A DNA stretch of 64,000 nt from an uncultured Chloroflexota bacterium (GTDB lineage: Bacteria > Chloroflexota > UBA11872 > VXNJ01): NCBI GenBank assembly GCA_964496475.1, contig CAZBZS010000001.1:36512-100511 (forward strand). The letters are read 5' to 3'. Shown here in pieces: positions 5,442 through 47,518 of this stretch. The notes under the pieces were generated by a model that was not told where the DNA came from, did not search any database, and worked only from the letters and a program-made list of their open reading frames with translations. A program made the position numbers and the translations under genes. Within the stretch, counting starts at the first letter, position 1, and each line of letters begins with the position of its first letter.

Positions 5442-6358
5442 CCGGGATGGGCCGACGATCCGAGCGCGAAGTGCGCGTGCGCTCGTACGCGAAGATCAAC
5501 CTGGGACTGGAAATCACGTCGCGGCGGGACGACGGGTACCACGAACTGGTCTCGGTGATGCAGGCGGTGAATCTGGCGGACACCTTGATTTTCATCCCGG
5601 CGGATGAGATTTCGGTGGATTCGGGTGTTGCCGGATTGAACCAGCGGGACGACTTGATCTGGAAAGCAGCGACAGCGCTGCGCGAGGCTGCCGGGGTCGG
5701 GCACGGTATCCACATCCTGTCCGAAAAAGAGCTCCCATCGCGGGCGGGGTTGGGCGGGGGAAGCTCAAATTGCGCCGCGACTCTCGTTGCGCTGAACGAG
5801 ATCTGGGAAGCCGGACTGCCAGTGGAAAAACTGGCGGAGATCGCCGCAGAGCTGGGGTCGGATCCGGCGTTCTTCATGTACGGTGGGACGGCGCTGACGC
5901 GGGGGCGAGGGGAGCTTGTGCAGCCGCTCCCGAATACTCCGCCGCGCTGGATCGTGCTGGCGAGGCCGGAGGAGTCGCTGAGCACGCCGGCGGTCTATGC
6001 CGAGTTGCGGGCGGACGAACACAGCGACGGCGCGGCGACGCTGGCGCTGGCGGCGGGACTAACGGAGGGCCGGCTGGACTACGACCTGATGCACAACAAC
6101 CTTGCTCCGGCAGCGCTGCGGCTCTGCCCGGCGATGCAGGGGGTGCTAGACGTGCTGCAGGAGTCGAGCGACTTCGCGATGGTATCGGGCAGCGGCAGCG
6201 CGTGCTTCGGTCTGTTTGCTGACCGGTCCGCAGCGCTGGAGACAATGGAGGTGTTCGAGGGTATCGGTCAATGGGTCCGGGTCTCTGAGTTTGTCCCGCG
6301 TCAATCGGTCGCGGACGCTGCGGATCACAGGTATGGCAACGAGGAAGGAGGGCGATAG
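5438..6358 (+). CDS. ispE: 4-diphosphocytidyl-2-C-methyl-D-erythritol kinase
   Basis: YAKINLGLEI start and the GHMP-kinase loop GLGGGSSNCAAT. Alternative ATG at 5447. Overlaps the ybeY stop. Confidence 0.9.
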   Translation: MTGMGRRSEREVRVRSYAKINLGLEITSRRDDGYHELVSVMQAVNLADTLIFIPADEISVDSGVAGLNQRDDLIWKAATALREAAGVGHGIHILSEKELPSRAGLGGGSSNCAATLVALNEIWEAGLPVEKLAEIAAELGSDPAFFMYGGTALTRGRGELVQPLPNTPPRWIVLARPEESLSTPAVYAELRADEHSDGAATLALAAGLTEGRLDYDLMHNNLAPAALRLCPAMQGVLDVLQESSDFAMVSGSGSACFGLFADRSAALETMEVFEGIGQWVRVSEFVPRQSVADAADHRYGNEEGGR

Positions 6359-6371
6359 AATTGACACTCGA

Positions 6372-6445
6372 TGGGGCGTCGCCAAGCGGTAAGGCACCGG
6401 CCTTTGGAGCCGGCATTCGTAGGTTCGAATCCTACCGCCCCAGCC
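6372..6445 (+). tRNA. tRNA-Gln (anticodon TTG)
   Basis: TGGGGCG acceptor pairs with CGCCCCA. D-arm GCCAAGCGGTAAGGC, anticodon stem-loop CCGGC-CTTTGGA-GCCGG, T-arm GTAGGTTCGAATCCTAC. Close to the E. coli tRNA-Gln sequence. Confidence 0.85.
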
Positions 6446-6570
6446 GGCGTCGCCGATAATCCCGCGTCGCCCATTGAATGAAGAGCGCATCGCGAGGTCG
6501 ATATCTGCGGCGGCGAAGTAAAAGCAGACGAAGGATCGCCCAGTTGAACGAGGACGGCGAAGGACCGGGC

Positions 6571-7932
6571 GTGGCGTGGGCCGCGGCGGTGATCCTGGCC
6601 GCTGGCAAAGGCACCCGTCTGAATTCCGCTCTGGCCAAGCCCCTGCACCCGGTGGCAGGGCGGCCGCTGCTGCAATTTTCGCTGGACCTGTGCGCTCAGG
6701 CCAGACTGGAACCGGTAGTTCTGGTGCACGACCCGGACGCAACGGACGTAGCCGGGCTGGCCGGGGACGGCATCACATGCGTACCCCAGCCAGCGGACGA
6801 CTACGGGACCGGACATGCGGTGAAAGCGGCGCTGGCGGGAATGGCGGAGGGCCCGGAAGCGACGGCCGTCCTTTATGCCGACACCCCTCTGTTGCGCTCC
6901 GAGACGGTGAGCGAACTAATCTCCCTCCGCGCCGGCAGCGGAGCGGCCATGGCGATACTGAGCTCGCGGTTGCACGACCCGAGCGGCTACGGGCGGATAG
7001 TGCGGAATGAATCCGGCGGGGTGACGGCGATCGTCGAATCCCATGTGGCCTCGAAGGAAGAACTACGGATCGACGAAACTAATACCGGGATCATGGTGTT
7101 TGACTCCCATTGGTTACGGGCAAACATCGGCGCGCTCAAGCCCGATCCGGAGAAGAGTGAGATCCTGCTAACGGACACCGTGGCGCTGGCCCTAACGCAG
7201 GGGAGAGCGGTGGAGTGTCTGACGCTTGCGGACCCGGCCGAGGGTATGGGCTGCGACGACCGGGCGGATCTGGCGGACGCGGAAGTGCGCCTGCGACGGC
7301 GAAAGCTGGAGGAATTAATGGCGGACGGTGTCCGCATCGAAGACCCGGCGGCGACTTACGTCGACTTGGACATCCAGATTGGGGCCGATACACGAATTCT
7401 AGCCGGTTGCCATTTGAGTGGATCGACGGTGATCGGAAGCCGCTGCGAAATCGGCCCGAACGCCCAGATCGCGGATTCGTCTATCGCGGACAGGTGCGAG
7501 GTGAACGCTTCTGTGATCAGCGGCGCTCGTGTGGCAACCGGTGCGAGCGTGGGTCCTTACGCGCATTTGCGGGCCGGCACAGTGCTTCATCACGGCGTTC
7601 ATATCGGAACCAGCAGCGAAGTGAAGAATTCGACCCTAGGAAACGGTACCATGATGGGCCACTTCGGCTACGTGGGAGACGCCGATTTGGGCGAGAACGT
7701 GAATATCGGAGCGGGTGCGGTGACCTGTAATTTCGACGGTGAGACGAAACACCGCACGATCGTTGGAGCGGGCACGTTTATCGGCAGCGGCAGCATGATC
7801 GTCGCACCGGCGAAAATCGGCAAGCGCGCATACATTGGCGCCGGTGCAGTGGTCACCCGGGACGTGGCCGACGGCGAAGTCGTGTACGGTGTGCCCGCGC
7901 GGCCGCGACCGGCGACAAGTAAGGGCGCCTGA
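6571..7932 (+). CDS. glmU: Bifunctional UDP-N-acetylglucosamine pyrophosphorylase / glucosamine-1-phosphate N-acetyltransferase
   Basis: AVILAAGKGTRL nucleotidyltransferase motif followed by left-handed beta-helix hexapeptide repeats. The ORF-track start at 6478 adds an R/K-rich extension, so the GTG at 6571 is more plausible. Confidence 0.9.
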   Translation: MAWAAAVILAAGKGTRLNSALAKPLHPVAGRPLLQFSLDLCAQARLEPVVLVHDPDATDVAGLAGDGITCVPQPADDYGTGHAVKAALAGMAEGPEATAVLYADTPLLRSETVSELISLRAGSGAAMAILSSRLHDPSGYGRIVRNESGGVTAIVESHVASKEELRIDETNTGIMVFDSHWLRANIGALKPDPEKSEILLTDTVALALTQGRAVECLTLADPAEGMGCDDRADLADAEVRLRRRKLEELMADGVRIEDPAATYVDLDIQIGADTRILAGCHLSGSTVIGSRCEIGPNAQIADSSIADRCEVNASVISGARVATGASVGPYAHLRAGTVLHHGVHIGTSSEVKNSTLGNGTMMGHFGYVGDADLGENVNIGAGAVTCNFDGETKHRTIVGAGTFIGSGSMIVAPAKIGKRAYIGAGAVVTRDVADGEVVYGVPARPRPATSKGA

Positions 7933-8997: not shown

Positions 8998-10308
8998 TTG
9001 GAACCTTCTAGTTGGGTAAGTCTGCCTGTTGTCTTGGGTTTGACTATTCTCAATATACTGATCGTGGCCTCAGAGTCGGCTCTGCTTGCGGTGCGCCCCA
9101 GTCGCATCGCTGAACTGGCCGAATCCGGGGATTTCCGTGCTGGCCGGGTCCGCCGGTTGAAGGAGAATCCCCAAAGGCTGCGAGCCACGCTGCGGGCGGT
9201 GACGTCGTTCCTGGGTTTCGCGGCGGCGGCGGTGGCGGCGGTGAACCTGGGGCCGGAATTGGCGCGGATAATTCCCAGCGATCCGCTGGCCGTTGGACTG
9301 GTGACCCTAATTGCGATTCTGGTCACGGTGGTCGGCGCCGACCTAGTTTCCCGCCGGCGCTCGGACGATCCGGAACCGCTGGCCCTCGGTGCGGCGACCC
9401 TGATCGAATGGGTGATGCGGATGGTGTCGCCGCTCACGTGGGTCCTCGGACGGCCCGGCGCGCTGTGGTCGCGGGTGGCGGGAGACGCGGGCTCCGCCGC
9501 GCCGGATACGGACTCCAACGAGGAGATCAGGTGGCTGATTCAGGAAGGGGAAAAACGAGGCGCCATCGAGGACGACGAGGCGGCGATGATTCACGGAGTC
9601 TTCGAACTGGCCAGCCGGCCGGTGCGCGCGATCATGACCGCGCGGCCCGACGTAATCTTGGTGGAATCAGGCACCCCGGCCGGGGAAGCGCTCGATCTCG
9701 CAATCAAGCACGGGTTCTCCCGCCTGCCGGTCTACCGGGACACCGTTGACACCATCCTCGGGGTGGTCTCGGTGCGTGAGATGGCCGTGGCCCTCAGGGC
9801 CGAGCACAACGGCGATACCCCCGTGGACGAGCTTATGTGGGACCCGTTATTCGTGCCGGAAACTAAGCTGAGCGGCGATCTGCTGGCGGAATTACAGGAA
9901 TTGAAGACGCACATGGCGATCGTGGTGGATGAGTACGGAGACACGGCCGGAATTGCCACACTGGAAGACATAATCGAGGAGATCGTCGGCGAGATTGCCG
10001 ACGAAACCGATATCGAGCGGCCGGGTCTGGTGCAGCTGGACCAGAACACGGCCATGGTTGACGGGCGCATGGCGCTGTCGGACCTAAACGACGAGATGGA
10101 CCTGGACATCGAGGCTGACGGGGCGGACACGGTGGGCGGGCTTGTGTTCCTGACGCTGGGCCACGTGCCCGAGGAGGGCGAAAAATTGAAGGTCGACGGG
10201 GTCAGCATCGAGGTTCTGCGGGTGGACAACACGCGCATTCGCCGGCTACGACTGGTGAGGCAGGTCGCAGCCGAGCCGGCCCCGGAACAGGTTGACGACG
10301 AAGTCTGA
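8998..10308 (+). CDS. Hemolysin-family / CNNM (DUF21-CBS-CorC_HlyC) transporter-associated protein
   Basis: N-terminal 4-TM DUF21, tandem CBS domains, C-terminal CorC_HlyC domain. Apparent TTG start overlaps a GGTTCC/GGAACC hairpin. Confidence 0.85.
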   Translation: MEPSSWVSLPVVLGLTILNILIVASESALLAVRPSRIAELAESGDFRAGRVRRLKENPQRLRATLRAVTSFLGFAAAAVAAVNLGPELARIIPSDPLAVGLVTLIAILVTVVGADLVSRRRSDDPEPLALGAATLIEWVMRMVSPLTWVLGRPGALWSRVAGDAGSAAPDTDSNEEIRWLIQEGEKRGAIEDDEAAMIHGVFELASRPVRAIMTARPDVILVESGTPAGEALDLAIKHGFSRLPVYRDTVDTILGVVSVREMAVALRAEHNGDTPVDELMWDPLFVPETKLSGDLLAELQELKTHMAIVVDEYGDTAGIATLEDIIEEIVGEIADETDIERPGLVQLDQNTAMVDGRMALSDLNDEMDLDIEADGADTVGGLVFLTLGHVPEEGEKLKVDGVSIEVLRVDNTRIRRLRLVRQVAAEPAPEQVDDEV

Positions 10309-12110: not shown

Positions 12111-12983
12111 TCATCCCGCAACGGCGATGAGGGCGACGCCGGCGGCAAGGGACAGGGCGCCGAGGATTCGGGCGCGGCCGGCACGCTCTTTGAGCAGCAA
12201 GACCCCGTAAAGAGTGGCGATGAGGATGCTGGTCTCGCGGGCGGCGGAGACGTACGTGACGATGCTCCAGGTCATGGCCGTAAGCACCATCGTGTAGGCG
12301 CCGAACAGGAGGATTCCGGCGGCGATGATCCAGAGGTATTCACGACGCACTAACGAAGTGAGCCGGACGGGCTTGCGGAGGTAGTAGGGGGCCATCAGCA
12401 GGGCCGAGCCCAGCACCCATAGCCACATGTAGATCAGGGGATTGACACGGGTGACGCCCGCCTTGTCGAGGACTGAATAAATGCCGATGGTCACCCCGGT
12501 GAGAAGGGCCAGGCGAGTGCCCGGCATCGTGACCAGGGCACGAAACGGCCGGGTGAGGTCGCGGATGGTGAGGTGCTCGGTACTTAGCAGGTAGACACCG
12601 GCGATCACCAGCAGCACGCCGCCGACACCGGCGACTGTCGGGGACTCGCCAAGGACGATAAAGGCGATGATCAGGACGAAGAGCGGACCGGTGCCACGGG
12701 CGAGCGGATAGGCGACGGAGAGGTCGGTGCGAGAGAGCGCTCCGCCGAGAAACAGGAAATAGAAGACGTGGATGACGGCGGAGGCGACGATAAAGATCCA
12801 GCCCTCGCCACTGATCGGATGGCTTGGCAGCAGGATGGCAAAGGCTGGCGCGTAGCCGATGACCCCAGCGATGATGGCCAGCCAGAGGAAAGCGCCTTGA
12901 TCGCGGGAACGCTTCGCCATGTAATTCCAGCCTGAATGCAGGAAGGCGGAGCCCAGTGCCAGGGCGAGAGCCGCGAGATCCAT
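12111..12983 (-). CDS. EamA/DMT-superfamily transporter
   Basis: 290 aa, 10 predicted TM helices in a two-EamA-domain pattern. Confidence 0.8.
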   Translation of the reverse strand: MDLAALALALGSAFLHSGWNYMAKRSRDQGAFLWLAIIAGVIGYAPAFAILLPSHPISGEGWIFIVASAVIHVFYFLFLGGALSRTDLSVAYPLARGTGPLFVLIIAFIVLGESPTVAGVGGVLLVIAGVYLLSTEHLTIRDLTRPFRALVTMPGTRLALLTGVTIGIYSVLDKAGVTRVNPLIYMWLWVLGSALLMAPYYLRKPVRLTSLVRREYLWIIAAGILLFGAYTMVLTAMTWSIVTYVSAARETSILIATLYGVLLLKERAGRARILGALSLAAGVALIAVAG

Positions 12984-14284
12984 TATTCGCCGGCCGCCGG
13001 CTTGAATTCAGCGATCACCGCGTGGTGGCGTTCGCCGGATCGGTACACGAAGAGGCGGTAGGGCGTGTCTCCTCGCAGGTAGCGCTGGAGGCGGGCCGCG
13101 ATGACATCCCCGGGCTCGGGAAAGCCGCGACAACGCACGGCAACCGAGCCGGACCCGAGCTTGCGGAGCCGCTCGCCGATGGCGCGATCGGAGAACGGTA
13201 GGGCGTCGATCACCCGATAATAGCGGGCGAATGGGGTTGTGGGCGCTGTATTGCTGGCCAAAAAGGCGATTTGCTCCGCCAGGACGCCGTGCTCGATGCC
13301 AGTGGCGGCGGCGAACTCGGTGAAGAGCCCCGAACGCACCAGGGCCGGCTCGGGCTCGGCGATAAAGCGGCCCGGTTCCTGTACGGGCAGGTAGTGGCCG
13401 GGTTCGCCGGTGAGTTCGGCGCGTGGGTTGTCGGCGGCGGCGCCGGACCCAAGCACAGTAGCCCGAAGGGAAGTCGAGATGGCTTGGCCAGCCCAGATGA
13501 CGGCCTCCTTGAGTTCGCCGTCGACGGAGACGAATTCGATCTCCGCGCCGGGGAAGGCATCCCGCAGGGCCGAGAGGGAAGCGGCGGGCGCGAGCTTGAT
13601 GGTGGTTGCCGGAGCACGGCCGGCCAGATCCGAGAGGAAGTCGATGGGCGGCGAGAGCCTTTTCAGGGAGGTGCTGCGTCGGTTTTCGGAGCGACGGGAA
13701 GGGTCGGCGTATACGACGCCGAATCCGTCGAGTGAAGCGGCTTCGGCCTCCCCGGTGCGGACCTGCACGCGGCCACCCATCCGGCCGGCTTCTTCCCCGG
13801 TTTCGTCGAAGCCGGCCTCGGAGAGGTTGCGTCGCACCATATCGGCCAGGAGTGGGTCGGATTCGACAGCGACGACAGACGCGCCGGCGCGGGCGAGCGC
13901 CAGAGTATCTCCACCCATCCCGGCGCAAACCTCCAGCACTGCTCCGAACCCGGAGAGTCGTTCGGCACGATGATCGGCGGCGATGGCGCCAGAAGCCTGC
14001 TCCAGCGCGGTGCGGGTGTACCAACGGGGATGGTCGGGGCCGAACTTGCGGACCGCGGCGGCACGTCCGGCAACGAGCTCGACGACCAGTGAGACGGCAG
14101 CCACGCCGCACTTCGCCCGGATCCTTTCCACCGTATGTAGCAGCCGCTGCCCGCTCACGTCGGCAGGGCCCAGGCTCGCAAGCAGTCGCTGGCCAGCCTC
14201 ATCGGCCAGGAAGCCCACAGCTTCAATTTTCTCAGGTATCGTCAACGCGGGTTGCCGCCATAAGTAGGTGGGTTGTCGCTCCAT
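12983..14284 (-). CDS. Class I SAM-dependent methyltransferase (large, THUMP-like-associated family)
   Basis: VLEVCAGMGGDTLALARAGASVVAVESDP is a Rossmann SAM motif I. 433 aa. The overlapping plus-strand ORFs are R-rich artefacts. Confidence 0.7.
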   Translation of the reverse strand: MERQPTYLWRQPALTIPEKIEAVGFLADEAGQRLLASLGPADVSGQRLLHTVERIRAKCGVAAVSLVVELVAGRAAAVRKFGPDHPRWYTRTALEQASGAIAADHRAERLSGFGAVLEVCAGMGGDTLALARAGASVVAVESDPLLADMVRRNLSEAGFDETGEEAGRMGGRVQVRTGEAEAASLDGFGVVYADPSRRSENRRSTSLKRLSPPIDFLSDLAGRAPATTIKLAPAASLSALRDAFPGAEIEFVSVDGELKEAVIWAGQAISTSLRATVLGSGAAADNPRAELTGEPGHYLPVQEPGRFIAEPEPALVRSGLFTEFAAATGIEHGVLAEQIAFLASNTAPTTPFARYYRVIDALPFSDRAIGERLRKLGSGSVAVRCRGFPEPGDVIAARLQRYLRGDTPYRLFVYRSGERHHAVIAEFKPAAGE

Positions 14285-34149: not shown

Positions 34150-36603
34150 ATGGCCGCCGTCCGTCAACTATTTCAGTACCGTAGGGGCCCGCATTTGGAA
34201 GTCGCCCAGGCCAGCCTAGCGGACGGCCTTCCCCGATCCAGCAGCGCACGGGTTAGCATAGAATCGCGCCCTCCCGACCGCGATGACATCGGCAGTCTAT
34301 TTCTGCTCCTTGAGGGTGGAACCGAGCGTCTGTGCAGAGCCTTCGCCAACGTGGCCGTGCGGGCCTATTTCTCCCAGGAAACCGGGAGTCCGATCTCCGG
34401 ACTCATGCGCAGCATGAGAGTCGGATCGAGCGCCGTGGCCAGGGAAGCCAGCCCGGAAGAAGAGCATCTGGATATCGGGGCCACCGGGCTGGTCGTTCGC
34501 GGCGACGAGCTCTACATCGCCCAACTTCTCCCCTCCCAGGTCTACATTTTCCGCGATGACGAACTTAACGCCCTCCCGGAGAAGTCCGCCGTGTCGCCTT
34601 CCGAACCGGGGGGACTGCCGTTCAATAAGGACATAGAGCTTTTTCAGGCCACGCTGGAGCTGGGCGACACCATCGCGGTCACCTCCTCGGTAATCGCCCG
34701 CGCCGTTCGCCACCGGGAAATCCGGGGGCTAATCGCCCTCTACGACGCGATCACTTGCGTCAATCAGCTGGGGGCGCTGGCCGCGCAGCGCGGCGTGGTC
34801 GAAGGCGACATTCTCCTTCTCCGGTCGGTCGCCGCCGAGGAAACTGTCGGGGCAACCGAGCCAGCCCTGGAGCAGCCCTCCCTCGAGGCAACGCGACCGG
34901 CAACGCATTCGGAATATCCCGTCCCCGCTCCGCCGGCAACCCGTCCGGGCCGTGAGCCCGATTGGTCGTCCGCCACTCTGGAAACCACCATGACCGCCCA
35001 TGATCACTCTCGGAAGTCGGCCAGGCGGGCAATCCTCGACGTGGTCATCTCGATCCCGCTTCTGGTCATTTTCCTTCCTGCGATGGCCATCCGAGGATTG
35101 TTCCGGTTGCTCAGAGGCGATCCGACTCGACAAGATCCTAGGGCAGGCGGGAGATCATCACCCCCGCCCCAGACCGAGTACGAGCGGCGGCGCGCGGCGA
35201 TAGCCGCTGGGCCGGTGGATCTGGAAGATTTAAACCGCCAATTACTGAATCCATCGGGAGACGCAATTCCACGTTCGTGGCCCGACGCGCCGGTGAGCCG
35301 GAACGGGGGATTGTTCGGCGGAATTTGGCGAATTGCACGCGGCAACGACGATCCGCTAATGCGCGGTCACCGGCGCGGCGGCGGCCTCGGGGCCGGGTCG
35401 CTAATCCTGCTGTTCTCCATCGTTGTAGTCATAGCGATGTTCATCGTGCTCTTCATCCGGCGGGAGGAAGCGCCTGCCGATGCTTTGCCGGCTCAAACCA
35501 GCAGCGGTGAAACCCCGGAACTGGTAGCGCCAGAGGCCTCGGCCAACGCCGATGCCGATGCCGCCGACTCCTTCGCGCGGGCAAAATCGTTCTACGACGC
35601 GGCGTTGAAGGAAGGAGACGACTCCCAGGCCAAGGAGGCCCTTCAGGACGCGTCCAACGCCGCGAACCGGGCCGGAAGCCTGGGCTACACGATCAGCGAA
35701 GTGAATCGCCTGCTGGCGCAGATCGACGATGAACGCGATTTACGCAACAAGGTAACCCGGGTCGCCACCAGCGCCACCATCACCGAGTTCGGGGAATCCG
35801 GGGCCGGACATGCGCTTGAACAGATCGAGGTCTACCAGGACCGGCAGTACGTGATCGACGCCGTAAACGGGCAGGTCATGGAATTTACCGACCCCAAGCG
35901 CGGCCAGACGGTCCTGCGTATCGGTGAGCAGATCGGCCAGGTGGGTGTGGCCGACATAATCGCCGTGATCTCCCGAGATTTGAGCCTGTTGGTGATAGAC
36001 AGCGACTTCAACGTGTTCAGCATCGTGCCCGACCAGCGACCGCAGCAACTGCGCATCCTGGGCACCGATCAGTGGAGAGACCCCGTGGCCTTCGACAACT
36101 TCCAGAACAATTTCTACGTTCTGGACCGCATCGCCAACCGCATCCACAAATACATCCCCACGCCCGGCGGCTACGAAGTGGAGCCAAGCGACTTCTTCGA
36201 TCCGGCTGAAGAGGTCGACATCAGCACCGCGAGGGACATGGCGATCGACGGGGACATCTACATCCTGCTCGAAGACAACAGGATCCTGAAGTACCGCGCC
36301 GGCCAGCAGATGCGATTTCAGCTCGTTGGCCTGGACCGGCCGATCCAGCTGGCCTCCCGGATATTCACCAGCCAGGAGTCGGATTCTCTTTTCATCGTGG
36401 ACGAGGAAAACCGGCGCATCATCGAAGTGGACATCCGCGACGGGAACGAGGGGGTGTTCCTGCGGCAGTTCCTGTTCCGGGGAGCCGACGATTTTTTCGC
36501 CGACATCAGGGGCATCTGGGTCCGCCAGTCGGACGGCCGCCTGCTGGTGCTGGGAGCAAACTCACTGCGCCAGTTCGTCCTGCCGAAGCTCCCGGACCAG
36601 TAG
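34150..36603 (+). CDS. Large membrane protein: N-terminal degenerate PP2C-like domain, 2 TM helices, C-terminal NHL-like beta-propeller
   Basis: 817 aa. Residues ~40-260 align loosely with a PP2C fold (LFLLLEGG vs DGMGG, GATGLVVRGDELYIAQ vs GTTLxxxxxLxxAHVGDS, LELGDTIAVTSS vs GDxLLLCSDG) but most catalytic Asp residues are replaced. TM helices at about 300-325 and 405-430. The C-terminal 350 aa carry repeated hhhDxxNxRIxxY/h motifs (FYVLDRIANRIHKY, IYILLEDNRILKY, LFIVDEENRRIIEVD) typical of NHL/six-bladed propellers. Confidence 0.6.
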   Translation: MAAVRQLFQYRRGPHLEVAQASLADGLPRSSSARVSIESRPPDRDDIGSLFLLLEGGTERLCRAFANVAVRAYFSQETGSPISGLMRSMRVGSSAVAREASPEEEHLDIGATGLVVRGDELYIAQLLPSQVYIFRDDELNALPEKSAVSPSEPGGLPFNKDIELFQATLELGDTIAVTSSVIARAVRHREIRGLIALYDAITCVNQLGALAAQRGVVEGDILLLRSVAAEETVGATEPALEQPSLEATRPATHSEYPVPAPPATRPGREPDWSSATLETTMTAHDHSRKSARRAILDVVISIPLLVIFLPAMAIRGLFRLLRGDPTRQDPRAGGRSSPPPQTEYERRRAAIAAGPVDLEDLNRQLLNPSGDAIPRSWPDAPVSRNGGLFGGIWRIARGNDDPLMRGHRRGGGLGAGSLILLFSIVVVIAMFIVLFIRREEAPADALPAQTSSGETPELVAPEASANADADAADSFARAKSFYDAALKEGDDSQAKEALQDASNAANRAGSLGYTISEVNRLLAQIDDERDLRNKVTRVATSATITEFGESGAGHALEQIEVYQDRQYVIDAVNGQVMEFTDPKRGQTVLRIGEQIGQVGVADIIAVISRDLSLLVIDSDFNVFSIVPDQRPQQLRILGTDQWRDPVAFDNFQNNFYVLDRIANRIHKYIPTPGGYEVEPSDFFDPAEEVDISTARDMAIDGDIYILLEDNRILKYRAGQQMRFQLVGLDRPIQLASRIFTSQESDSLFIVDEENRRIIEVDIRDGNEGVFLRQFLFRGADDFFADIRGIWVRQSDGRLLVLGANSLRQFVLPKLPDQ

Positions 36604-36676
36604 AAGAGACCCGCTGAGCGGGCGCGGATGCTGAGCGGGCGACCACGCTGGCAAATACGACCTTTGCAGCAGGCGC

Positions 36677-36749
36677 GGAGCGGGTAGCGGGAATCGAACC
36701 CGCATTTCAACCTTGGGAAGGTCGCGTTCTGCCACTGAACCATACCCGC
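36677..36749 (-). tRNA. tRNA-Gly (anticodon CCC)
   Basis: Minus-strand GCGGGTATGGTTCAGTGGCAGAACGCGACCTTCCCAAGGTTGAAATGCGGGTTCGATTCCCGCTACCCGCTCC. Anticodon loop TTCCCAA, T-arm GCGGGTTCGATTCCCGC, 7-bp acceptor stem. Confidence 0.85.
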
Positions 36750-36879
36750 CAGCGAATCGACCCTACTGACGCTGCTGGCATAATGTCAATGAGTCAGCCC
36801 TCGGACGGCCGCGACTCGCTCCGCGGGAGTATTCATCCCGGGATGGGCCGGCGCCCCTCGTTCATCAAGGCAGGGATAG

Positions 36880-37827
36880 ATGACGGACAGTAAGTCGATC
36901 GCCGAATCGGTGATCGATAACGTCGAGCGCGTCATAGTTGGCAAGCGGGAGGCCGTCGAGAAGGTGTTGATCGCCATGGTCTCCCACGGCCATGTCCTCA
37001 TCGAAGATGTTCCCGGTGTCGGCAAAACCACCATGGCCAAGGCGTTCGCCCAGTCCATCGGCTGCGATTTCCGGCGTATTCAGTTCACCCCGGACCTGCT
37101 GCCCAGCGATATTGCCGGCGTCTCGATTTACAACCAGAAAACCGCCGAATTTGAATTCCGTCCCGGCCCGATCATGGCGCAAATAGTGCTGGCCGACGAG
37201 ATCAACCGCGCCACTCCGAAAAGCCAGTCCGCGTTGTTGGAGGCGATGGACGAGCACCAGGTCACGATCGATGGAATCACCCACAAGATGGCCGAACCGT
37301 TCCTGGTGCTGGCCACGCAAAATCCAATCGAGTACGAGGGCACCTTTCCCCTGCCCGAATCCCAGCTTGATCGGTTCTTCATGCGAATCACCCTCGGCTA
37401 CGCCGGGCGCGACCATGAACTCGAGATAATCGATTCCCAGCTCCTCGCCCACCCGATTGACAGCATCGAACAGGTCGTTGATGTCGTCGATCTCATCCAG
37501 CTGCAAGAGCAGGTCAAGAGTGTGTACGTGGACCAGCGGGTGCGCGAATACATTGTCGACGTCGTGCGCTCCACACGCGAGCACTCCGACATTTACCTGG
37601 GCGCCAGCACCCGCGCCAGCCTGGCCCTCTTCCGCGGATCACAGGCCAGCGCCAGTTTTCGCGGCCGCGACTATGTGGTCCCCGACGACGTTAAGGCTCT
37701 GGCCGGCGATGTCCTGGCCCACCGCCTGATCGTGAGTCCTGCCGCCCGAATCCGCAATCTGGACACACGGGACACTGTCGGCGAGATCCTGGACTCGATG
37801 CCAGTCCCGGGCGCCACCGCCGCATGA
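36880..37827 (+). CDS. MoxR-family AAA+ ATPase
   Basis: Walker [11 protein letters not shown], Walker [10 protein letters not shown], and the MoxR-typical C-terminal helical domain. 315 aa. Confidence 0.95.
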
Positions 37828-38357
37828 CCGCTTCGGAGATGCCAGGCGTCTGCGTCGAGGCCATCCCCGGCTGGGGCTGGTGCGGCGTCGCCGCCGGCGC
37901 CGACGGGCTCCTAGCCGCCAGCGGCGGCGTGGGCACGGAAACCGAATGCCGCCGCAAGCTCCGGGGAGCCGTCCCGCGCGACTGGATTCCGGACGATGCC
38001 ATTGCGGCCAGCGGACTGTTATTTCTCGAGGCCGCGCTCGGCGGCAAGAGTGCCGAAACCCCTGAACTCGATCTGAGAGGCACGACGTTCGAAATTGACA
38101 TCTGGCGTGCTCTCGGACGCGTGCCGCGGGGAGCCACCACGACCTATGGCGATATCGCCGCCGGCCTCGGCCTCTCAGCCGGGCACGCCCGCGCAGTCGG
38201 TCGCGCCGTGGGAGCGAATCCACTCCGGGTCATCGTCCCCTGCCACCGGGTCATCGGGCAGGACGGCTCGCTCACAGGCTACGCCGGCGGGCTGGATCTG
38301 AAGCGGAAGCTGTTGAATTCCGAGGCGTCAGCGCTAATCGGGGCAAGCCCGCGGTAA
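37824..38357 (+). CDS. ogt: Methylated-DNA--protein-cysteine methyltransferase
   Basis: Active-site [10 protein letters not shown] and an HTH ([23 protein letters not shown]). ATGA overlap with the moxR stop. Confidence 0.9.
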
Positions 38358-38407
38358 TTCAGCCAGAGGCCGGGCGAAGACGACCGACAGGGAACCCGGC
38401 GGGGCCG

Positions 38408-38743
38408 CTACTCGGCCCCGTTCCCACCGGCCCGACGCTGCGAGCGGTGCTCGTCGATATGTTCGTCCGAATAGAAGCCGGTTTCTTCACCTCGAAATAC
38501 CGTTACATAAAATTCTTCCCGGCTGGTCTCCGCCGAAATCACCAGCTGCTCGTCAATTTCGCAGACCAGATCAAGCACATCGCTTTCAGCGAAATCTTCA
38601 ACCATCATCAACGTTGCGTATGACGACTCGGCTCCATAATGAAGGTCCAGCCTTCCGATCGGCTTTCCATCCAGTCGCACCAGGAAGCCCTCGGAACTTG
38701 AAGTTCGATACTGTCGCAGGAAATTCACATTGGCCGTATTCAA
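38408..38743 (-). CDS. Hypothetical acidic protein (111 aa)
   Basis: Intact ORF with lower GC than its neighbours and no recognisable motif. Lies at the distal end of the nadB-nadC operon. Confidence 0.45.
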   Translation of the reverse strand: MNTANVNFLRQYRTSSSEGFLVRLDGKPIGRLDLHYGAESSYATLMMVEDFAESDVLDLVCEIDEQLVISAETSREEFYVTVFRGEETGFYSDEHIDEHRSQRRAGGNGAE

Positions 38744-38752
38744 GGTCGCTCC

Positions 38753-39610
38753 TCAGTCAAAATCCAGGCCGATATCGAGCGCTCTCACCGAATGGGTCAG
38801 CGACCCGATCGAAATAAAGTCGATTCCGGTTCTGGCGATCTCAGCAACATTATCCAGGGTCACGCCGCCCGAGGCCTCCAATTTCGCCCGACCCCCACAA
38901 CGCGCTACCGCCTCGCGGAGTTCCGCCCGCGACATGTTATCCAGCAGCGACCACTCCACTCCCATCGCCAGGCATTCGTCCAACTGTTCCAGCGTGTCGC
39001 ACTCCACCTGAATGCGGACCCCACCGGCCGGGACCGCGCTGCGGGCCCGTTCCACCGCCGCCCTCAACGATCCCGCCGCGCGGATGTGGTTGTCCTTGAT
39101 GAGCACCGCGTCAAAGAGACCGAAGCGATGGTTGACGCCGCCACCCAGCCTTACGGCGTATTTGTCCAGCGCCCGCAGGCCGGGGACCGTTTTGCGCGTG
39201 TCGAGAATTCGGGCTGATGTCCCCTCGACCGCCTTCACGAACTCCGCCGTGGCGGTCGCGATACCCGACATCCTCTGGAGGAAATTGAGGGCCACACGCT
39301 CCGCGGTCAGGATGGACGCGGCCCGACCACGCACGCCAGCCATCACGTCTCCTGGACTCACCACCCCACCGTCGGAAATCTTCAATTCCACTTCCACATT
39401 GCCGCCGTCAAACCGAAGTGCTGCCGCGAAAACCTTCAGGCCGGCCACCGTTCCGTGTTCCCTCGCCACCACCCTGGCCGAGATTCTTGTCGCGTCATCG
39501 ATGCAGGCAGACGTGGTCAGATCGCCGTCACCCACATCCTCGGCGAAGGCCATCGCCAGCACCCGGTCGATCATCTCCGCATCCAGTTCGTCGACACTCT
39601 GGCCCATCAT
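38753..39610 (-). CDS. nadC: Nicotinate-nucleotide pyrophosphorylase (carboxylating) / quinolinate phosphoribosyltransferase
   Basis: LDTRKTVPGLR and IKDNHI motifs, TIM-barrel C-domain. 285 aa. Confidence 0.95.
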   Translation of the reverse strand: MMGQSVDELDAEMIDRVLAMAFAEDVGDGDLTTSACIDDATRISARVVAREHGTVAGLKVFAAALRFDGGNVEVELKISDGGVVSPGDVMAGVRGRAASILTAERVALNFLQRMSGIATATAEFVKAVEGTSARILDTRKTVPGLRALDKYAVRLGGGVNHRFGLFDAVLIKDNHIRAAGSLRAAVERARSAVPAGGVRIQVECDTLEQLDECLAMGVEWSLLDNMSRAELREAVARCGGRAKLEASGGVTLDNVAEIARTGIDFISIGSLTHSVRALDIGLDFD

Positions 39611-41163: not shown

Positions 41164-41187
41164 TAGAGCCCTTGGTTTAACAAGGTG

Positions 41188-42288
41188 CTATCCCGACGCC
41201 CCGTGACCGAGCTGCGCCAGCACCGTCTCCGCCACATCCAGCGATCGGTCGATGTCCGCGCTATCCAGCCATCCCAGATGGCCGATCCGAAACACCGAAT
41301 TTTTGAGATGAGCCAGCCCGCCGCCAAACACGGTGTTGTGCTCACGGCGCGCGATGTCGCGGAATGCCACCGCGTCCACCTGCGGTGGGAGTCTTACCGC
41401 CGTAACCGTATCGGATGCAACTGCTGCATTCGGGAAGAGCGCCAGTCCCATGGCCCTGACCCGCTCGCGCACACGCTCGGCGGTCTCATGGTGCCGGGCG
41501 TAGACGGATTCCATACCTTCAGACTCAAACTGGCTCAGTGCCAGCCGCATTGCGTAGAACACCGGCAAAGCGGGGGTCCAGGGATATTGCCCCCGGTTGG
41601 CGGCGTCGTTCAGCGCCCCCAGATCGAAGTAAAAGCGTGGAAGTCTGGCCGACTGCTGAAATCGCCAAGCGCGCGCACTTACCGCGATCATAGCCAGCCC
41701 TGGCGGCGCCATCCACGCTTTCTGGGAGGCGCTATAGACCACGTCTATTCGCCACTCATCGGTGCGGAGGGGAATCGCCGCGGCGGAGCTCACCGCGTCC
41801 ACAACAACGAGGACATCGCGATCGCCAATGGCCACGCCAATCGCCGCCAGGTCTTCGGTGACTCCGGTGGAGGTTTCGTTGTGGGTGACAAAGAGACCGC
41901 GATGACCGCCGGCGTCCAGCCGGCCGATGATCTCCGCTGGATCGACTCCCGTCCCCCATTCCACGTCCAACACTTCAACATCAAGGCCAAAGGCGTTCGT
42001 GAGCGAGACAGCCCGGTTCGCGAACACTCCTCCACGAACCACCAGCACCCGATCTCCGGCGGAGAAGAAATTGGAGGCAGCCGCTTCCATCGCGCCGGTG
42101 CCGGAGCTGGTCAGGAGGATCACATCGCCTTCCGTGTCCAGCACCTTCATTACGCCACCCCGCACCTCCCGCAAAAGATCGGCGAATTCCTCGCCCCGGT
42201 GATTGATCATCTGACCCGCCGCCGCGATGCGGATGTCATCTGGCAGGGGGGTGGGGCCGGGAATGCGGAGATTTTCTGGGGTCATCAC
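41188..42288 (-). CDS. AGXT-family (class V) pyridoxal-phosphate aminotransferase (alanine--glyoxylate/serine--pyruvate type)
   Basis: PLP-lysine motif SASQKAWMAPPGL (SxSQK). 366 aa. First gene of the nadB-nadC operon. Confidence 0.85.
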   Translation of the reverse strand: MMTPENLRIPGPTPLPDDIRIAAAGQMINHRGEEFADLLREVRGGVMKVLDTEGDVILLTSSGTGAMEAAASNFFSAGDRVLVVRGGVFANRAVSLTNAFGLDVEVLDVEWGTGVDPAEIIGRLDAGGHRGLFVTHNETSTGVTEDLAAIGVAIGDRDVLVVVDAVSSAAAIPLRTDEWRIDVVYSASQKAWMAPPGLAMIAVSARAWRFQQSARLPRFYFDLGALNDAANRGQYPWTPALPVFYAMRLALSQFESEGMESVYARHHETAERVRERVRAMGLALFPNAAVASDTVTAVRLPPQVDAVAFRDIARREHNTVFGGGLAHLKNSVFRIGHLGWLDSADIDRSLDVAETVLAQLGHGASG

Positions 42289-42505
42289 CGTCTAAAATCC
42301 TCACACGCTCTTCGTCGTCCAGACAAGGCGCGCCAAGGCTATTGCAACACCGTCGCGGCGACAAGATGCTCCGGCAAAAGTGGGCGTTCCCACCCGGCTG
42401 GCCGATATCGCTTAGTAAAATCCGTGTTTTCCCGGGGATGCCCACCGGTAAGCGTCCTCCCGTGTGTGCCACCAACCGCCCGGATCGTCGTCAAGGAACG
42501 ATCGT

Positions 42506-43579
42506 TTGTCACTTAGAGCTCAGGCTCTCGCGGGCATCACCTTCGTCGTGGTATTCGCGATGTTCGCCGCATGTTCTCCCGGATCGTCGCCTGCCGGCGT
42601 AGCCACATCCCCGCCGCCGAGTAGCATCCCCGATTCAGATCAGGCCCATACCGAATTACCTGTTATCGAGCAGGCTGTCCAGCTTGAGTTCGAACCCGAC
42701 TGCCCTCTCACTATTCCCGAGCTGGTACGTCGCATCTCGCCTGCCGTCGTCCACATCTCCACCAAAGAAGTCACCGTGAACGCCAGCGGCCGGCCGGTGC
42801 CCGCCGGCGGGGTAGGGACCAGATTTATCATCGACGCCATCGGCCTGGTCGTCACAAACGATCATGTGATCAGCGGGGCAGCCTCCATCCGGGTGACTCT
42901 CACCGACGGCCGTGATGCCGAGGCCGAGTTGATTGGCAGCGACCCGATCTCCGACCTGGCAGTCTTGAGGATCGGTCTCACCGATCTTACGGTCGCCCCC
43001 CTTGGCCGATCCGCCGATTTGCAGGTTGGCGAAACCGTCGTGGCCATCGGTCACGCGCTAGACCTCCCCGGCGGCCCCACCGTGACCGTCGGCGTCGTCA
43101 GCGCCCTCGACCGCACCCTGACCAACGTCGGCCCCGGCGGCGCGACCCTGAGCGATCTCATTCAGACCGACGCGTCCATCAACCCCGGCAATAGCGGAGG
43201 ACCGGTCCTCGACGCCTGTGGTCGAGTCGTCGGCATCAACTCCGCCGACATCCAGGGCATCGAAAATATCGGCTTCGCCATCAGCATCGATGGCACCCGG
43301 GCAATCATTGACGAACTGATCGCCAACGGACGCATCGAACGCGGATTCCTGAGCGTCGTCAGCGCGACCGTGACCCGCGGCATAGCCCGCCGTTTCGAGC
43401 TTCCGGCCAGCGCCGGGGTATTCATCGATCGAATCTCCCCCGGGAGCGCGGCCGAGGCTGGCGGACTCCGCCCCGGAGACATGATCATCGGGCTGGCCGG
43501 CGACTCAATTGACGATCAGGGAGAACGGAGTCGGACCCTCTCACGGAAGAAAAGGGGGTCAGCGGGGGGAGGAATATAA
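42506..43579 (+). CDS. S1C (HtrA/DegP-like) trypsin-family serine protease lipoprotein with a short PDZ-like C-terminus
   Basis: TTG start gives MSLRAQALAGITFVVVFAMFAACS (lipobox-like). Catalytic triad context TNDHV...D...GNSGGPVLD. The PDZ-like GLRPGDMIIGLAGDSI region ends early. Confidence 0.85.
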   Translation: MSLRAQALAGITFVVVFAMFAACSPGSSPAGVATSPPPSSIPDSDQAHTELPVIEQAVQLEFEPDCPLTIPELVRRISPAVVHISTKEVTVNASGRPVPAGGVGTRFIIDAIGLVVTNDHVISGAASIRVTLTDGRDAEAELIGSDPISDLAVLRIGLTDLTVAPLGRSADLQVGETVVAIGHALDLPGGPTVTVGVVSALDRTLTNVGPGGATLSDLIQTDASINPGNSGGPVLDACGRVVGINSADIQGIENIGFAISIDGTRAIIDELIANGRIERGFLSVVSATVTRGIARRFELPASAGVFIDRISPGSAAEAGGLRPGDMIIGLAGDSIDDQGERSRTLSRKKRGSAGGGI

Positions 43580-43669: not shown

Positions 43670-44647
<978 letters not shown>

Positions 44648-44706
44648 TGGATTAGGAAGCCTCCGCTTGGCAGCCGTCTCGGTCTTCAATTGGACGGGCG
44701 AGGCCC

Positions 44707-45945
44707 GTGGCTAGCCTGTTCGCGGTCGGAGGGCTGCTCCTGGTGACCGCCTTTCTTACCGGCATCGGCGTGTTCTACCTGCTCTTCTACCTTGTGCTGG
44801 GAATCCATCTGCTGGGCTGGTTTTGGATTCGCACGATTCGCCGCGGTTTATCTGTCGAGCGCAACCTTCTGGACCGGGTGTTCATCGGCGAGACGATTCC
44901 GGTCACGGTAAGGGTTCACAACCGGTCGCTGCTACCGGTTCCGTGGATCAGCCTCTGGGAATCGCTGCCCCGCGAACTCTCCAGCCAGGGCGTATTGAAA
45001 CGGGTCACTTCGCTGGCGCCGCGATCCGAGACCGCCGTGGAATACGAGCTGACGGCCCGCCGTCGCGGGTACTACCCGGTGGGCCCGATCGACCTGCAAT
45101 ACGGGGATGTTTTCGGATTTCGCCAGGAGTATCTTTGGCACGAGGAGCCGACCATGGTCATCGTGTACCCCACGGTCGTTCCCATCTCCCGCCTAGGATT
45201 GCCCTCCACAACCCCGCTGGGCACCGAAAAATCGTCGCGCATCCTCTACCAGGACCCTTCCCGGGTGATTGGCGCCCGCGAGTATCAGCCCTCCGACAGC
45301 CCCCGCATGATCAACTGGAAGGTCTCGGCCGCGCGGGGAGAGCTGTTCGTCAGGCAGGTCGAACCGGCGGTGAGCCACGAGGTGTTGATCCTGCTGGATC
45401 TTAGTCCGGCCGGCTACTCGCAGCGATGGATCAATTATTCCAGCGAACTGTCGGTCACCGTCGCGGCCTCATTCGCCGCCCATCTGATCGAAAAACGCCA
45501 GTCCGTTGGCCTCGCCGTCAACGGTATCGACCAGGTCGCCACGGGCGGGCAGATGCTTTCCCCGGCGCTGGTGGACCTATTTCGGGCGGAGCGCTCGCCC
45601 TTCGTGGCCGTGGGAAGGGGCAGGCGCCACCTGATGCTGATCCTGGAACTGCTGGCGCGGGTGGGCCTGTTGACCGGAGCCGACATGCAACGTCTGCTGC
45701 ACCACGAGGCCGCCCGGTTGCCCTGGGGATCAACCCTGGTGGTAGTTACAGGTAAATCCGATCCCACCCTGTTGGCCACCCTGCAGGGCCGCCGGCGAGC
45801 CGGACACAACGTGCTGGCCGTTTTCACCGATACCGACGAGTCCCGAAACTCGGTCGCCGCCGCCCGCGCCGCCGGAATCGCCGCCCGCTCGATCACCGAT
45901 AGAGAGCAAATAGATGTCGCGCCCGGTATCGCCACAGTCTCGTAG
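44707..45945 (+). CDS. DUF58 domain protein (VWA-like MoxR partner)
   Basis: N-terminal 2-TM segment then a DUF58 core (ARRRGYYPVGPIDLQYGDVFGF...REYQPSDSPRMINWKVSAARGELFVRQ). Confidence 0.9.
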   Translation: MASLFAVGGLLLVTAFLTGIGVFYLLFYLVLGIHLLGWFWIRTIRRGLSVERNLLDRVFIGETIPVTVRVHNRSLLPVPWISLWESLPRELSSQGVLKRVTSLAPRSETAVEYELTARRRGYYPVGPIDLQYGDVFGFRQEYLWHEEPTMVIVYPTVVPISRLGLPSTTPLGTEKSSRILYQDPSRVIGAREYQPSDSPRMINWKVSAARGELFVRQVEPAVSHEVLILLDLSPAGYSQRWINYSSELSVTVAASFAAHLIEKRQSVGLAVNGIDQVATGGQMLSPALVDLFRAERSPFVAVGRGRRHLMLILELLARVGLLTGADMQRLLHHEAARLPWGSTLVVVTGKSDPTLLATLQGRRRAGHNVLAVFTDTDESRNSVAAARAAGIAARSITDREQIDVAPGIATVS

Positions 45946-47518
45946 CCGACTTACCCTCTTTCTGATCGTTACCTTCGGCTATGCCCTGGTCGCACTCGGC
46001 GTGGTATTTCTGAGTCACCAGTTCGGCCTTCCCGCCATGCGCTCAGCAGCCAGTTTCGCGGCCCTCGTTTCCAGCTTCGCAATCCGCACCTACCTGGGTT
46101 GCGTGCGGCCAAAGCGCCCATCTGACCAGATTTCCTGGCGAGACTGGTTCGTTTTCGCCCTCCCGGCCATCCTGATCGTGCGACTCACCGGTATCGTCGA
46201 CGAAGGCACCGCCGAGGAGTACGAAAACTGGTATTCCTCCCTGCACGTGATCATTCTGGACATGCCGACCTTCATCCTTCTCCTCCTCATGATCGGCACC
46301 TGGATGACCGGCGCTCTGGTCGCCGAGCAGGTTGACGCCCTTCATCCCCGCTCAATCGACGCCCGCGCTTCAGATCGATCAGATCTCGATGGGGATGCCT
46401 CAACCGGATTGGAACGCCAGAACCGGGCCGTGGCCATGATGTGGCTGGACCGCGTCGGAGCCGGCGGTGCGGGCATTCTTATCGTCTTTTCCGGCATCCT
46501 TGTTGCCGCTCCGCCATACGTCGGGGTACCGGCCGCTATCCCGGCCGGTATCGTGCTTGTCGCCCTGTTGTTCTATTTTGTAACAATTTTGTTACTGCAT
46601 AGTTACGCCAGCTTCGTTCGTCGCCAAACCAACTGGGATTTGGACCACGCTCCGCAATCACCCGGTATCGCCTCCAACTGGCTGCGTTCCACGACGTTGA
46701 TCCTTGGAGTGGGCCTCCTTCTCGTCGCCTTTCTCCCCAGATTCCCCGCGCCCGACCTGAGCGACGGAGTCAGGCCATTTGTCATCATTGGCCAGGTCGT
46801 GCTCGGAATCCTTATATTGCCTTTTGTCGCTTTTGCGTACTTATTGAAACTTTTCTTCTCATTATTCCGAGGGGACGGAGAGGGCAGCGAAACTCCGATC
46901 GCGCCCAGACCGACCGTGCCTCTTACGTCGGGAAGCGAAAGCGACTGGTTGCCGTTCTTCCAATCGGCCGCCCTCTGGTTCGTGCTGGCGCTCATGATGT
47001 ATTTGATCATTCGTCGCCTCCGCAACCGGCGGGCGCCGGTGCCGGTGCTGGAGCCGGTCCTCGTGGCGCTGGCCGCGATTTTCCTCCTACCGGGACTGCT
47101 GCTCGCCGCGATCCGCGGCTTCCTCAGTCTGGCCGGAGAGGCCGTGGTGGAGGCCGCCGGTGCCACCCGCGCCGGGTTATCCCGCCTGCGCCGACCGCTC
47201 GTCTCCCGTGGAAAAGCCGTCGAGCCCGAGCCGCTTACCAATCGAGACCGGGTCTGGCGTAGCTATCGGGCCGTTCTCCAGGCCGCCGCCGCCGCCGGCC
47301 ACGAGCGCCTTCCCGATCAGACCGCCGACGAATTCCGCTATGCTCTCGAACCGCATCTCGGGGAGACCCGCCTCAGTCTCCGTGCCATCACCGGCATTTT
47401 CGTCCGGGCCCGCTACTCAAACGCCGCGGTCGGCCATGACGGCGTCCAGCGCGCCCGCGACAGCGGCGACCGGGTCGTGCGATCTCTGCAACAATCGGAC
47501 CATGCAGGATCTGTTTGA
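45914..47518 (+). CDS. Polytopic membrane protein with C-terminal DUF4129-like domain
   Basis: About 9 TM helices, then a cytoplasmic tail ...TADEFRYALEPHLGETRLSLRAITGIFVRARYSN that resembles DUF4129, the third component of MoxR/DUF58 operons. Confidence 0.65.
   Translation: MSRPVSPQSRSRLTLFLIVTFGYALVALGVVFLSHQFGLPAMRSAASFAALVSSFAIRTYLGCVRPKRPSDQISWRDWFVFALPAILIVRLTGIVDEGTAEEYENWYSSLHVIILDMPTFILLLLMIGTWMTGALVAEQVDALHPRSIDARASDRSDLDGDASTGLERQNRAVAMMWLDRVGAGGAGILIVFSGILVAAPPYVGVPAAIPAGIVLVALLFYFVTILLLHSYASFVRRQTNWDLDHAPQSPGIASNWLRSTTLILGVGLLLVAFLPRFPAPDLSDGVRPFVIIGQVVLGILILPFVAFAYLLKLFFSLFRGDGEGSETPIAPRPTVPLTSGSESDWLPFFQSAALWFVLALMMYLIIRRLRNRRAPVPVLEPVLVALAAIFLLPGLLLAAIRGFLSLAGEAVVEAAGATRAGLSRLRRPLVSRGKAVEPEPLTNRDRVWRSYRAVLQAAAAAGHERLPDQTADEFRYALEPHLGETRLSLRAITGIFVRARYSNAAVGHDGVQRARDSGDRVVRSLQQSDHAGSV

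Follow-up and report, generated by a model that had tools for sequence, protein, structure and literature searches.

The DNA analysed here, a stretch of 64,000 nucleotides from an uncultured Chloroflexota bacterium (the window), encodes on its forward strand a MoxR AAA+ ATPase of the Pfam AAA_3 type that lacks an adjacent partner (moxR1, 36880-37827, 315 aa; an ORF check found it intact at exactly these coordinates) and, directly 3' of it, an O6-alkylguanine-DNA methyltransferase (ogt, 37824-38357, 177 aa, active site PCHR with Cys140). The stop and start codons overlap by 4 nt at 37824-37827 (+): the ATG of ogt (37824-37826) lies over the TGA of moxR1 (37825-37827), in the context GCCGC-ATGA-CCGC. 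The pair is bounded upstream by a tRNA-Gly(CCC) gene on the opposite strand (36677-36749, -) and downstream by a convergent gene of 111 aa without a Pfam family (P111, 38408-38743, -), beyond which lie nadC and then nadB on the minus strand. Given the opposite-strand tRNA and the convergent gene, the moxR1-ogt unit comprises two genes only. An earlier note on this DNA had described both the overlap and an operon made of moxR and ogt alone, with no DUF58 or VWA gene, and these descriptions hold.

A sigma-70-like promoter match (TCGACC-16 nt-CATAAT, with TG) is found at 36757-36784 (+), 96 nt before the start of moxR1; the scan gave two matches against 0.4 expected in shuffled sequences, and a consensus match of this kind is not in itself evidence of function. 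The earlier note had raised the matter of an independent promoter for ogt, and a sigma-70 consensus scan (a weak instrument) found no promoter-like site on the plus strand between the upstream match and the ogt start. A weak consensus scan likewise found no terminator-like hairpin between moxR1 and ogt, inspection by eye of the 20 nt preceding the start codon of ogt showed nothing resembling a Shine-Dalgarno sequence, and an Rfam scan of positions 36400 to 38800 returned the tRNA only.

MoxR1 matches the Pfam families AAA_3 (2.6e-65, over the full 131-position profile) and AAA_lid_2 (5.1e-22), the MoxR domain pair. It has the Walker A (GVGKT at 46) and Walker B (LADEINR at 104) motifs, as well as ATQNP (at 145) and GASTRA (at 241), which are presumably its sensor motifs. 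In the alignment, none of the residues conserved in DUF58-partnered MoxRs is lost in MoxR1. The domain pair and all nucleotide-binding motifs are shared with the MoxRs of moxR-DUF58-transglutaminase operons (the bifidobacterial PFNA cluster aaa-atp/duf58/tgm, mycobacterial MoxR1), and MoxR1 is 50-65% identical to MoxRs encoded in operons of this type. It differs from them in its context, where ogt comes next and DUF58/VWA and transglutaminase genes are missing, and in a C-terminal patch of the orphan clade (residues 288-297). This patch (A288, I291, D295 and R297, i.e., A..I...D.R) is found in the orphan MoxRs, ogt-linked and solo (n = 17), and not in the partnered ones; residues 281-300 (~37720-37779) have a conservation of 0.85 in orphan MoxRs against 0.50 in partnered MoxRs. 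Either shared descent within the clade or a surface that takes the place of the DUF58 contact could explain the patch.

The gene is under strong purifying selection. Against the 87%-identical orthologue its dN is 0.087 with saturated dS, and across comparisons dN is 0.09-0.26 and dN/dS ~0.04-0.17, with dS (1.3-2.1) saturated in each. Given this selection and the intact motifs, we rejected the view of moxR1 as a relic in decay that is retained as a mere leader for ogt. Membership of the MoxR-VWA-beta-propeller ternary system was also rejected, because the match to bpMoxR (PF20030) is weak (33 bits, compared with 219 for AAA_3) and no VWA gene is adjacent. Our best reading is that MoxR1 is a predicted functional, partner-less MoxR from a Chloroflexota MoxR lineage that is mostly partner-less.

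The product of ogt matches PF01035 (3.9e-30) and the NCBIfam model TIGR00589 'ogt' (1.1e-27). Across 14 MoxR-linked Ogts, residues Y108, R123, N132, P139, C140, H141, R142 and E167 are invariant; we take the Tyr, Arg, Asn, His and Glu among them to be the equivalents of the catalytic and DNA-binding residues of human MGMT. The protein is not an Ada, since it has only 177 aa and the match to the Ada model covers only the C-terminal 88 residues of that model, at a score below the cut-off, nor is it an alkyltransferase-like (ATL) protein, since the active-site cysteine is present and invariant. The N-terminal domain has no match to Pfam Methyltransf_1N, and it aligns with that of a relative (the Ogt of locus L036) that itself matches PF02870 at 7e-6; in the Ogts encoded directly after moxR this domain is divergent and has a W-G/D-W-C motif. 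The window protein thus resembles Escherichia coli Ogt and human MGMT in its PF01035 domain, its PCHR site and its conserved Tyr/Arg/Asn/His/Glu, and differs from them in its N-terminus and in the coupling of its gene to that of a MoxR ATPase. The best reading of its sequence is an ordinary suicide alkyltransferase, predicted to be catalytically complete. Its non-synonymous evolution is ~3-4 times faster than that of moxR1. A search of the window for another ogt, a YabN-like gene or a SRAP gene found none.

The second MoxR locus of the window, six kb from moxR1-ogt, is organised as the earlier note had described it (43670-47518): moxR2 (43670-44647, +) is followed by a DUF58 gene (44707-45945, +) and by the gene of a DUF4129 protein (45914-47518, +). 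MoxR1 and MoxR2 are paralogues with 53% identity. No other DUF58-type partner was found in the window, and it is conceivable that the DUF58 protein of this locus partners MoxR1 in trans. The DUF4129 protein of the window has no Transglut_core match; both domains are present in the counterparts of 730-1000 aa that we scanned in other Chloroflexota and at the Allobacillus locus L090.

We surveyed the genomic context of MoxR1 relatives by scanning one genome per species with MoxR1, which gave 80 loci that were annotated by tblastn and with an Ogt HMM built from the matches; 77 of them had enough downstream sequence to be judged. The gene following moxR is DUF58 in 68 of the 77 loci, and in one more DUF58 comes after a two-gene insertion. 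This total of 69/77 bears out the claim that MoxR almost always has a DUF58/VWA neighbour. In the remaining loci, moxR is followed directly by ogt (7/77; hereafter type A) or stands alone (1/77). In one Dehalococcoidia locus (L027, 6940-8723), whose sequence stops before the place where an ogt might follow, two ORFs, one of them encoding an AAA_21 (AbiEii-like) ATPase, lie between moxR and DUF58-transglutaminase.

On each of the contigs that encode relatives of MoxR1 with 87%, 75% and 72% identity, ogt lies directly 3' of moxR, and the survey added seven further species with this arrangement (L013, L014, L015, L016, L019, L054 and L080; MoxR identity down to 66%, Ogt identity down to 36-42%). 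The moxR-ogt pair is thus present in about ten species-level lineages of Chloroflexota, with MoxRs 66-91% identical, and the adjacency is neither sporadic nor unique to this genome, the two outcomes that the earlier note had regarded as damaging. All these loci also retain nadC and moxR2-DUF58, and usually aspS, infC and the gene of an 817-aa protein (P817). Since the whole neighbourhood is syntenic, the adjacency of moxR and ogt is no better conserved than its surroundings and by itself says little.

The stop and start codons of the two genes overlap or are 3 nt apart in 8 of 11 junctions: there is an NTGA overlap in the window (ATGA), in L002 and L013 (TTGA) and in L008 (GTGA), and a 3-nt spacer (TGA-CCG-ATG) in L016, L054, L019 and L080. 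The other three, L014, L015 and L005, have gaps of 44-179 nt; in the 179-nt gap of L005, promoter and terminator scans of the plus strand came up empty.

A metagenome scan from the side of ogt, with the universal PCHRV pattern, retrieved generic Ogt loci rather than close relatives, and we used it as a background control. Among the matches listed, MoxR was absent from the neighbourhood of ogt in all 80 unrelated loci, 38 of which were at least 6 kb long. From these sequences, the link to moxR appears specific to these Chloroflexota and not a general property of ogt.

In the lineage with 72% identity (L008, L009 and L010), a SRAP gene (6128-6820) lies directly upstream of moxR1-ogt, and in L010 a fragment with a DNA_alkylation domain is found nearby (9938-10234). 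SRAP is an abasic-site/SOS-response peptidase family. These neighbours may be a small DNA-damage theme or a coincidence.

Genes for Ogt are also found at the end of complete MoxR operons. Eight Chloroflexota species, mostly labelled Dehalococcoidia, have moxR, DUF58, transglutaminase and ogt in this order on one strand (L018, L035, L036, L041, L043, L047, L048 and L051). The third gene encodes a protein of 850-1000 aa with Transglut_core and DUF4129 domains, and its stop codon overlaps the ogt start, or lies within 2 nt of it, in 5 of the 8 loci. The genes 3' of ogt differ from one such locus to another, e.g., a transposase (L036), a convergent dehydrogenase (L041) or a convergent OB-fold protein (L048), which indicates that ogt in these genomes is part of the moxR operon rather than of the neighbourhood downstream. 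A terminal ogt followed by unrelated genes is the pattern expected when a small gene has been added to the end of an operon. These clusters resemble the unit of the window in that their leading MoxR is of the same broad clade and that ogt comes last, on the same strand and often overlapping; they differ from it in having the two middle genes, and the window Ogt falls outside the group that their Ogts form in a neighbour-joining (NJ) tree.

Other relatives of moxR1 lack ogt altogether. The locus L173 has a moxR 69% identical to moxR1, followed by the convergent P111, nadC, nadB and then moxR2-DUF58, i.e., the flanks of the window with no ogt, and further solo MoxR relatives occur in L011/L012, L174, L175, L176 and L017. 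The closest relatives of MoxR1 outside the ogt-linked clade are solo Chloroflexota MoxRs of 65-69% identity, which like MoxR1 have no DUF58 neighbour and, unlike it, no ogt. The positional orthologue without ogt and the solo relatives show that ogt is dispensable for moxR1, as an optional 3' passenger.

Several solo moxR genes have another neighbour on their 5' side: a gene for a tetrapyrrole-methylase/MazG fusion lies upstream on the same strand in L173 (5274-7004), L174 (2218-3687), L011 (5292-6761) and L012 (1687-3156), and one for MazG only in L175 (5548-6759). In L173 its stop codon overlaps the moxR start by 4 nt. Methylase/MazG, also a nucleotide-sanitising type of enzyme, thus recurs, like ogt, as a neighbour of orphan MoxR genes in these loci; no homologue was found in the window.

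Taken together, we give a probability of roughly 60% to the reading that moxR1 and ogt are co-transcribed and translationally coupled, that ogt relies on the promoter of moxR1, and that the pair has been inherited vertically within one Chloroflexota clade. As judged from the sequence, the two genes would be transcribed as one unit from a promoter upstream of moxR1, and the translation of ogt would be coupled to the termination of moxR1 through the ATGA overlap. Here ogt would ride last behind a moxR promoter, as it seems to do elsewhere behind complete moxR-DUF58-transglutaminase operons, and the pair would then have been kept by descent within the clade. The coupling would be a matter of expression, with MoxR1 presumably not acting on Ogt. 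This reading draws on the 4-nt overlap, on the bounded unit whose only promoter-like site on the plus strand lies upstream of moxR1, on the lack of a terminator-like site between the genes and on the relaxation of the coupling to gaps of 44-179 nt in the sub-clade of L005, L014 and L015. What speaks against simple hitch-hiking is that ogt is linked to moxR-led operons in two architectures whose Ogts do not group together (0/100 bootstraps). If the linkage was gained independently, chance becomes an unlikely cause and selection for the linkage is implied; by rough inference, among a few thousand genes a randomly placed ogt would rarely end up directly beside a given operon on the same strand.

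How the pair arose is a separate matter, for which we considered two origins: either a four-gene operon lost its DUF58 and transglutaminase genes, or ogt arrived beside a moxR that was already solo. The first, in which moxR1-ogt is the remnant of moxR-DUF58-transglutaminase-ogt and an internal deletion of the middle genes fused the ends into the overlap, is compatible with expression coupling, and we regard it as possible but doubtful. The existence of the four-gene form in eight species counts in its favour, and one of these loci, L018, encodes the four-gene MoxR closest to MoxR1 (65% identity) and an Ogt 36% identical to that of the window, close to the 38% of the most distant type A Ogt. 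The trees were built by NJ on distances. In the MoxR tree, the ogt-adjacent proteins form one clade beside the solo clade, and L018 and L017 come next, an order that fits a deletion of DUF58-transglutaminase followed by a loss of ogt in the solo clade. But the bootstraps of these nodes are low (51 for type A, 28 for type A plus solo and 6 with L018 and L017 added), and the nodes that would polarise gain and loss of ogt are too poorly supported to be used. The Ogt tree, built with 74 unrelated Ogts, goes against the deletion: the Ogts of four-gene operons, that of L018 included, form a clade (86/100), which type A never joins (0/100). This tree is not decisive either, because Ogt is short and fast-evolving and the N-terminal domain of type A is unusual. 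Two further observations stand against a deletion, namely that no lineage has a remnant of DUF58 or transglutaminase between moxR1 and ogt, and that the regions downstream of the four-gene loci are not syntenic with the window. The ogt-linked MoxRs of both architectures occupy three places in the NJ tree, and from these topologies we estimate between one and three independent linkages of moxR and ogt.

The earlier note had suggested that the ATPase assists the turnover or loading of alkylated Ogt, and had offered operon compaction as the alternative. A functional partnership could take two forms: the ATPase, alone or with DUF58-transglutaminase, might remodel, load or clear alkylated Ogt, or both proteins might belong to one stress response that needs a fixed stoichiometry, hence the coupling. 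We consider this unlikely. There is something to be said for it: two architectures place ogt with moxR operons (15/77 species-representative loci), the junctions are tight (at most 3 nt or overlapping) in 8/11 type A loci and in 5/8 transglutaminase-ogt loci, a single origin finds no support in the Ogt tree, MoxR is absent from those unrelated ogt loci among the matches listed that span 6 kb or more (0/38) and the SRAP gene upstream of the pair in one lineage is another DNA-damage gene. Two papers characterise MoxR proteins of this type as chaperones that act in stress tolerance (PMC11432383, PMC11834572). On the other side, positional orthologues of moxR1 without ogt exist, the coupling is relaxed in one sub-clade and the four-gene form couples ogt to the transglutaminase gene, not to moxR. 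MoxR1 shows no conserved surface specific to ogt: compared with solo and partnered MoxRs, the only residues specific to the ogt clade are 305 and 315, at the extreme C-terminus. The evidence is all positional. A full-text search found no paper connecting MoxR with O6-methylguanine or methylated-DNA methyltransferases, and the sole co-occurrence was in an essentiality screen, which by its title and abstract we judged to be unrelated.

Direct support for ATPase-assisted turnover or loading was thus not gained, given the syntenic neighbourhood, the solo relatives with the ogt-less L173 and the lack of ogt-specific residues, and compaction of the operon is the better fit of the two. Since complete moxR-DUF58-transglutaminase operons of other Chloroflexota likewise end in ogt, the association of ogt with moxR is recurrent, which keeps the functional idea alive at low probability. 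In its more specific version, Ogt of these Chloroflexota would be a genuine client or partner of MoxR, with the ATPase (with or without DUF58-transglutaminase) recognising alkylated, inactivated Ogt and unfolding or clearing it, or tying the alkylation response to the MoxR stress module, and ogt would have been captured by moxR operons more than once; this we hold to be slightly less likely still, and a true partnership of MoxR and Ogt is improbable in either version. Finally, it is very unlikely that moxR1 and ogt are merely neighbours, with a promoter for ogt inside moxR1 and an overlap of no consequence for expression: one sub-clade does have 44-179 nt between the genes, and promoters of Chloroflexota may deviate from the sigma-70 consensus scanned, but the scans found no promoter-like site before ogt and no terminator-like site after moxR1, no Shine-Dalgarno-like run was seen in the 20 nt before the ogt ATG, and the NTGA or TGA-N3-ATG junction was kept in 8/11 lineages despite saturated synonymous change.

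The components of this locus belong to known families, and the moxR-ogt operon arrangement is, as far as we found, undescribed. If the link is one of expression only, the pair is a tidy case in which a small repair gene rides on another operon. The survey also suggests that a sizeable lineage of Chloroflexota MoxRs functions with no DUF58/VWA adaptor encoded next to it, a point worth knowing when the function of a MoxR is assigned from gene context. To our knowledge, little has been established about what MoxRs of this type act on or about what becomes of alkylated Ogt in bacteria; a functional link, if true, would provide a concrete client for such MoxRs and bear on how bacteria handle a dead, alkylated suicide repair protein.

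Some observations concern the genes around the pair. P817 (34150-36603, +) has no Pfam or NCBIfam match; it is found near moxR1 in the ogt-linked clade at 27-70% identity, and its gene is inverted in L005 and L014. We rejected it as a partner of moxR1 in cis, because it has no family, the opposite-strand tRNA lies between the two genes and other genes take its place in the solo orthologues. P111 is acidic, has no NCBIfam family either and adjoins nadC in L002, L008, L013 and L173. Homologues of P111 lie ~4.5-5 kb downstream of Limnocylindria-type moxR-DUF58-transglutaminase operons (L023, L026, L046 and L050); as a synteny anchor between these operons and the window it was dismissed as a weak argument, since two unrelated genes intervene. 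The near-identical moxR-DUF58 loci L023, L024, L025 and L026 are labelled Bathyarchaeia archaeon, Actinomycetota, Chloroflexi and Limnocylindria, respectively, and these conflicting labels are probably due to mis-binned or mislabelled metagenome-assembled genomes.

Long spurious ORFs are common in high-GC DNA, and the window probably contains one at 41185-42516 (+; 443 aa, no Pfam match), which overlaps an ORF at 41188-42288 (-); in the identical contig L001, a class V aminotransferase is encoded there on the minus strand. An HtrA-like protease with Trypsin_2 and PDZ domains (371 aa) is encoded at 42464-43579 of the window. In the 87%-identical L002, L003 and L004 it is represented by two genes, of 126 and 148 aa (12540-13470), a split that could reflect a frameshift, a pseudogene or an assembly error.
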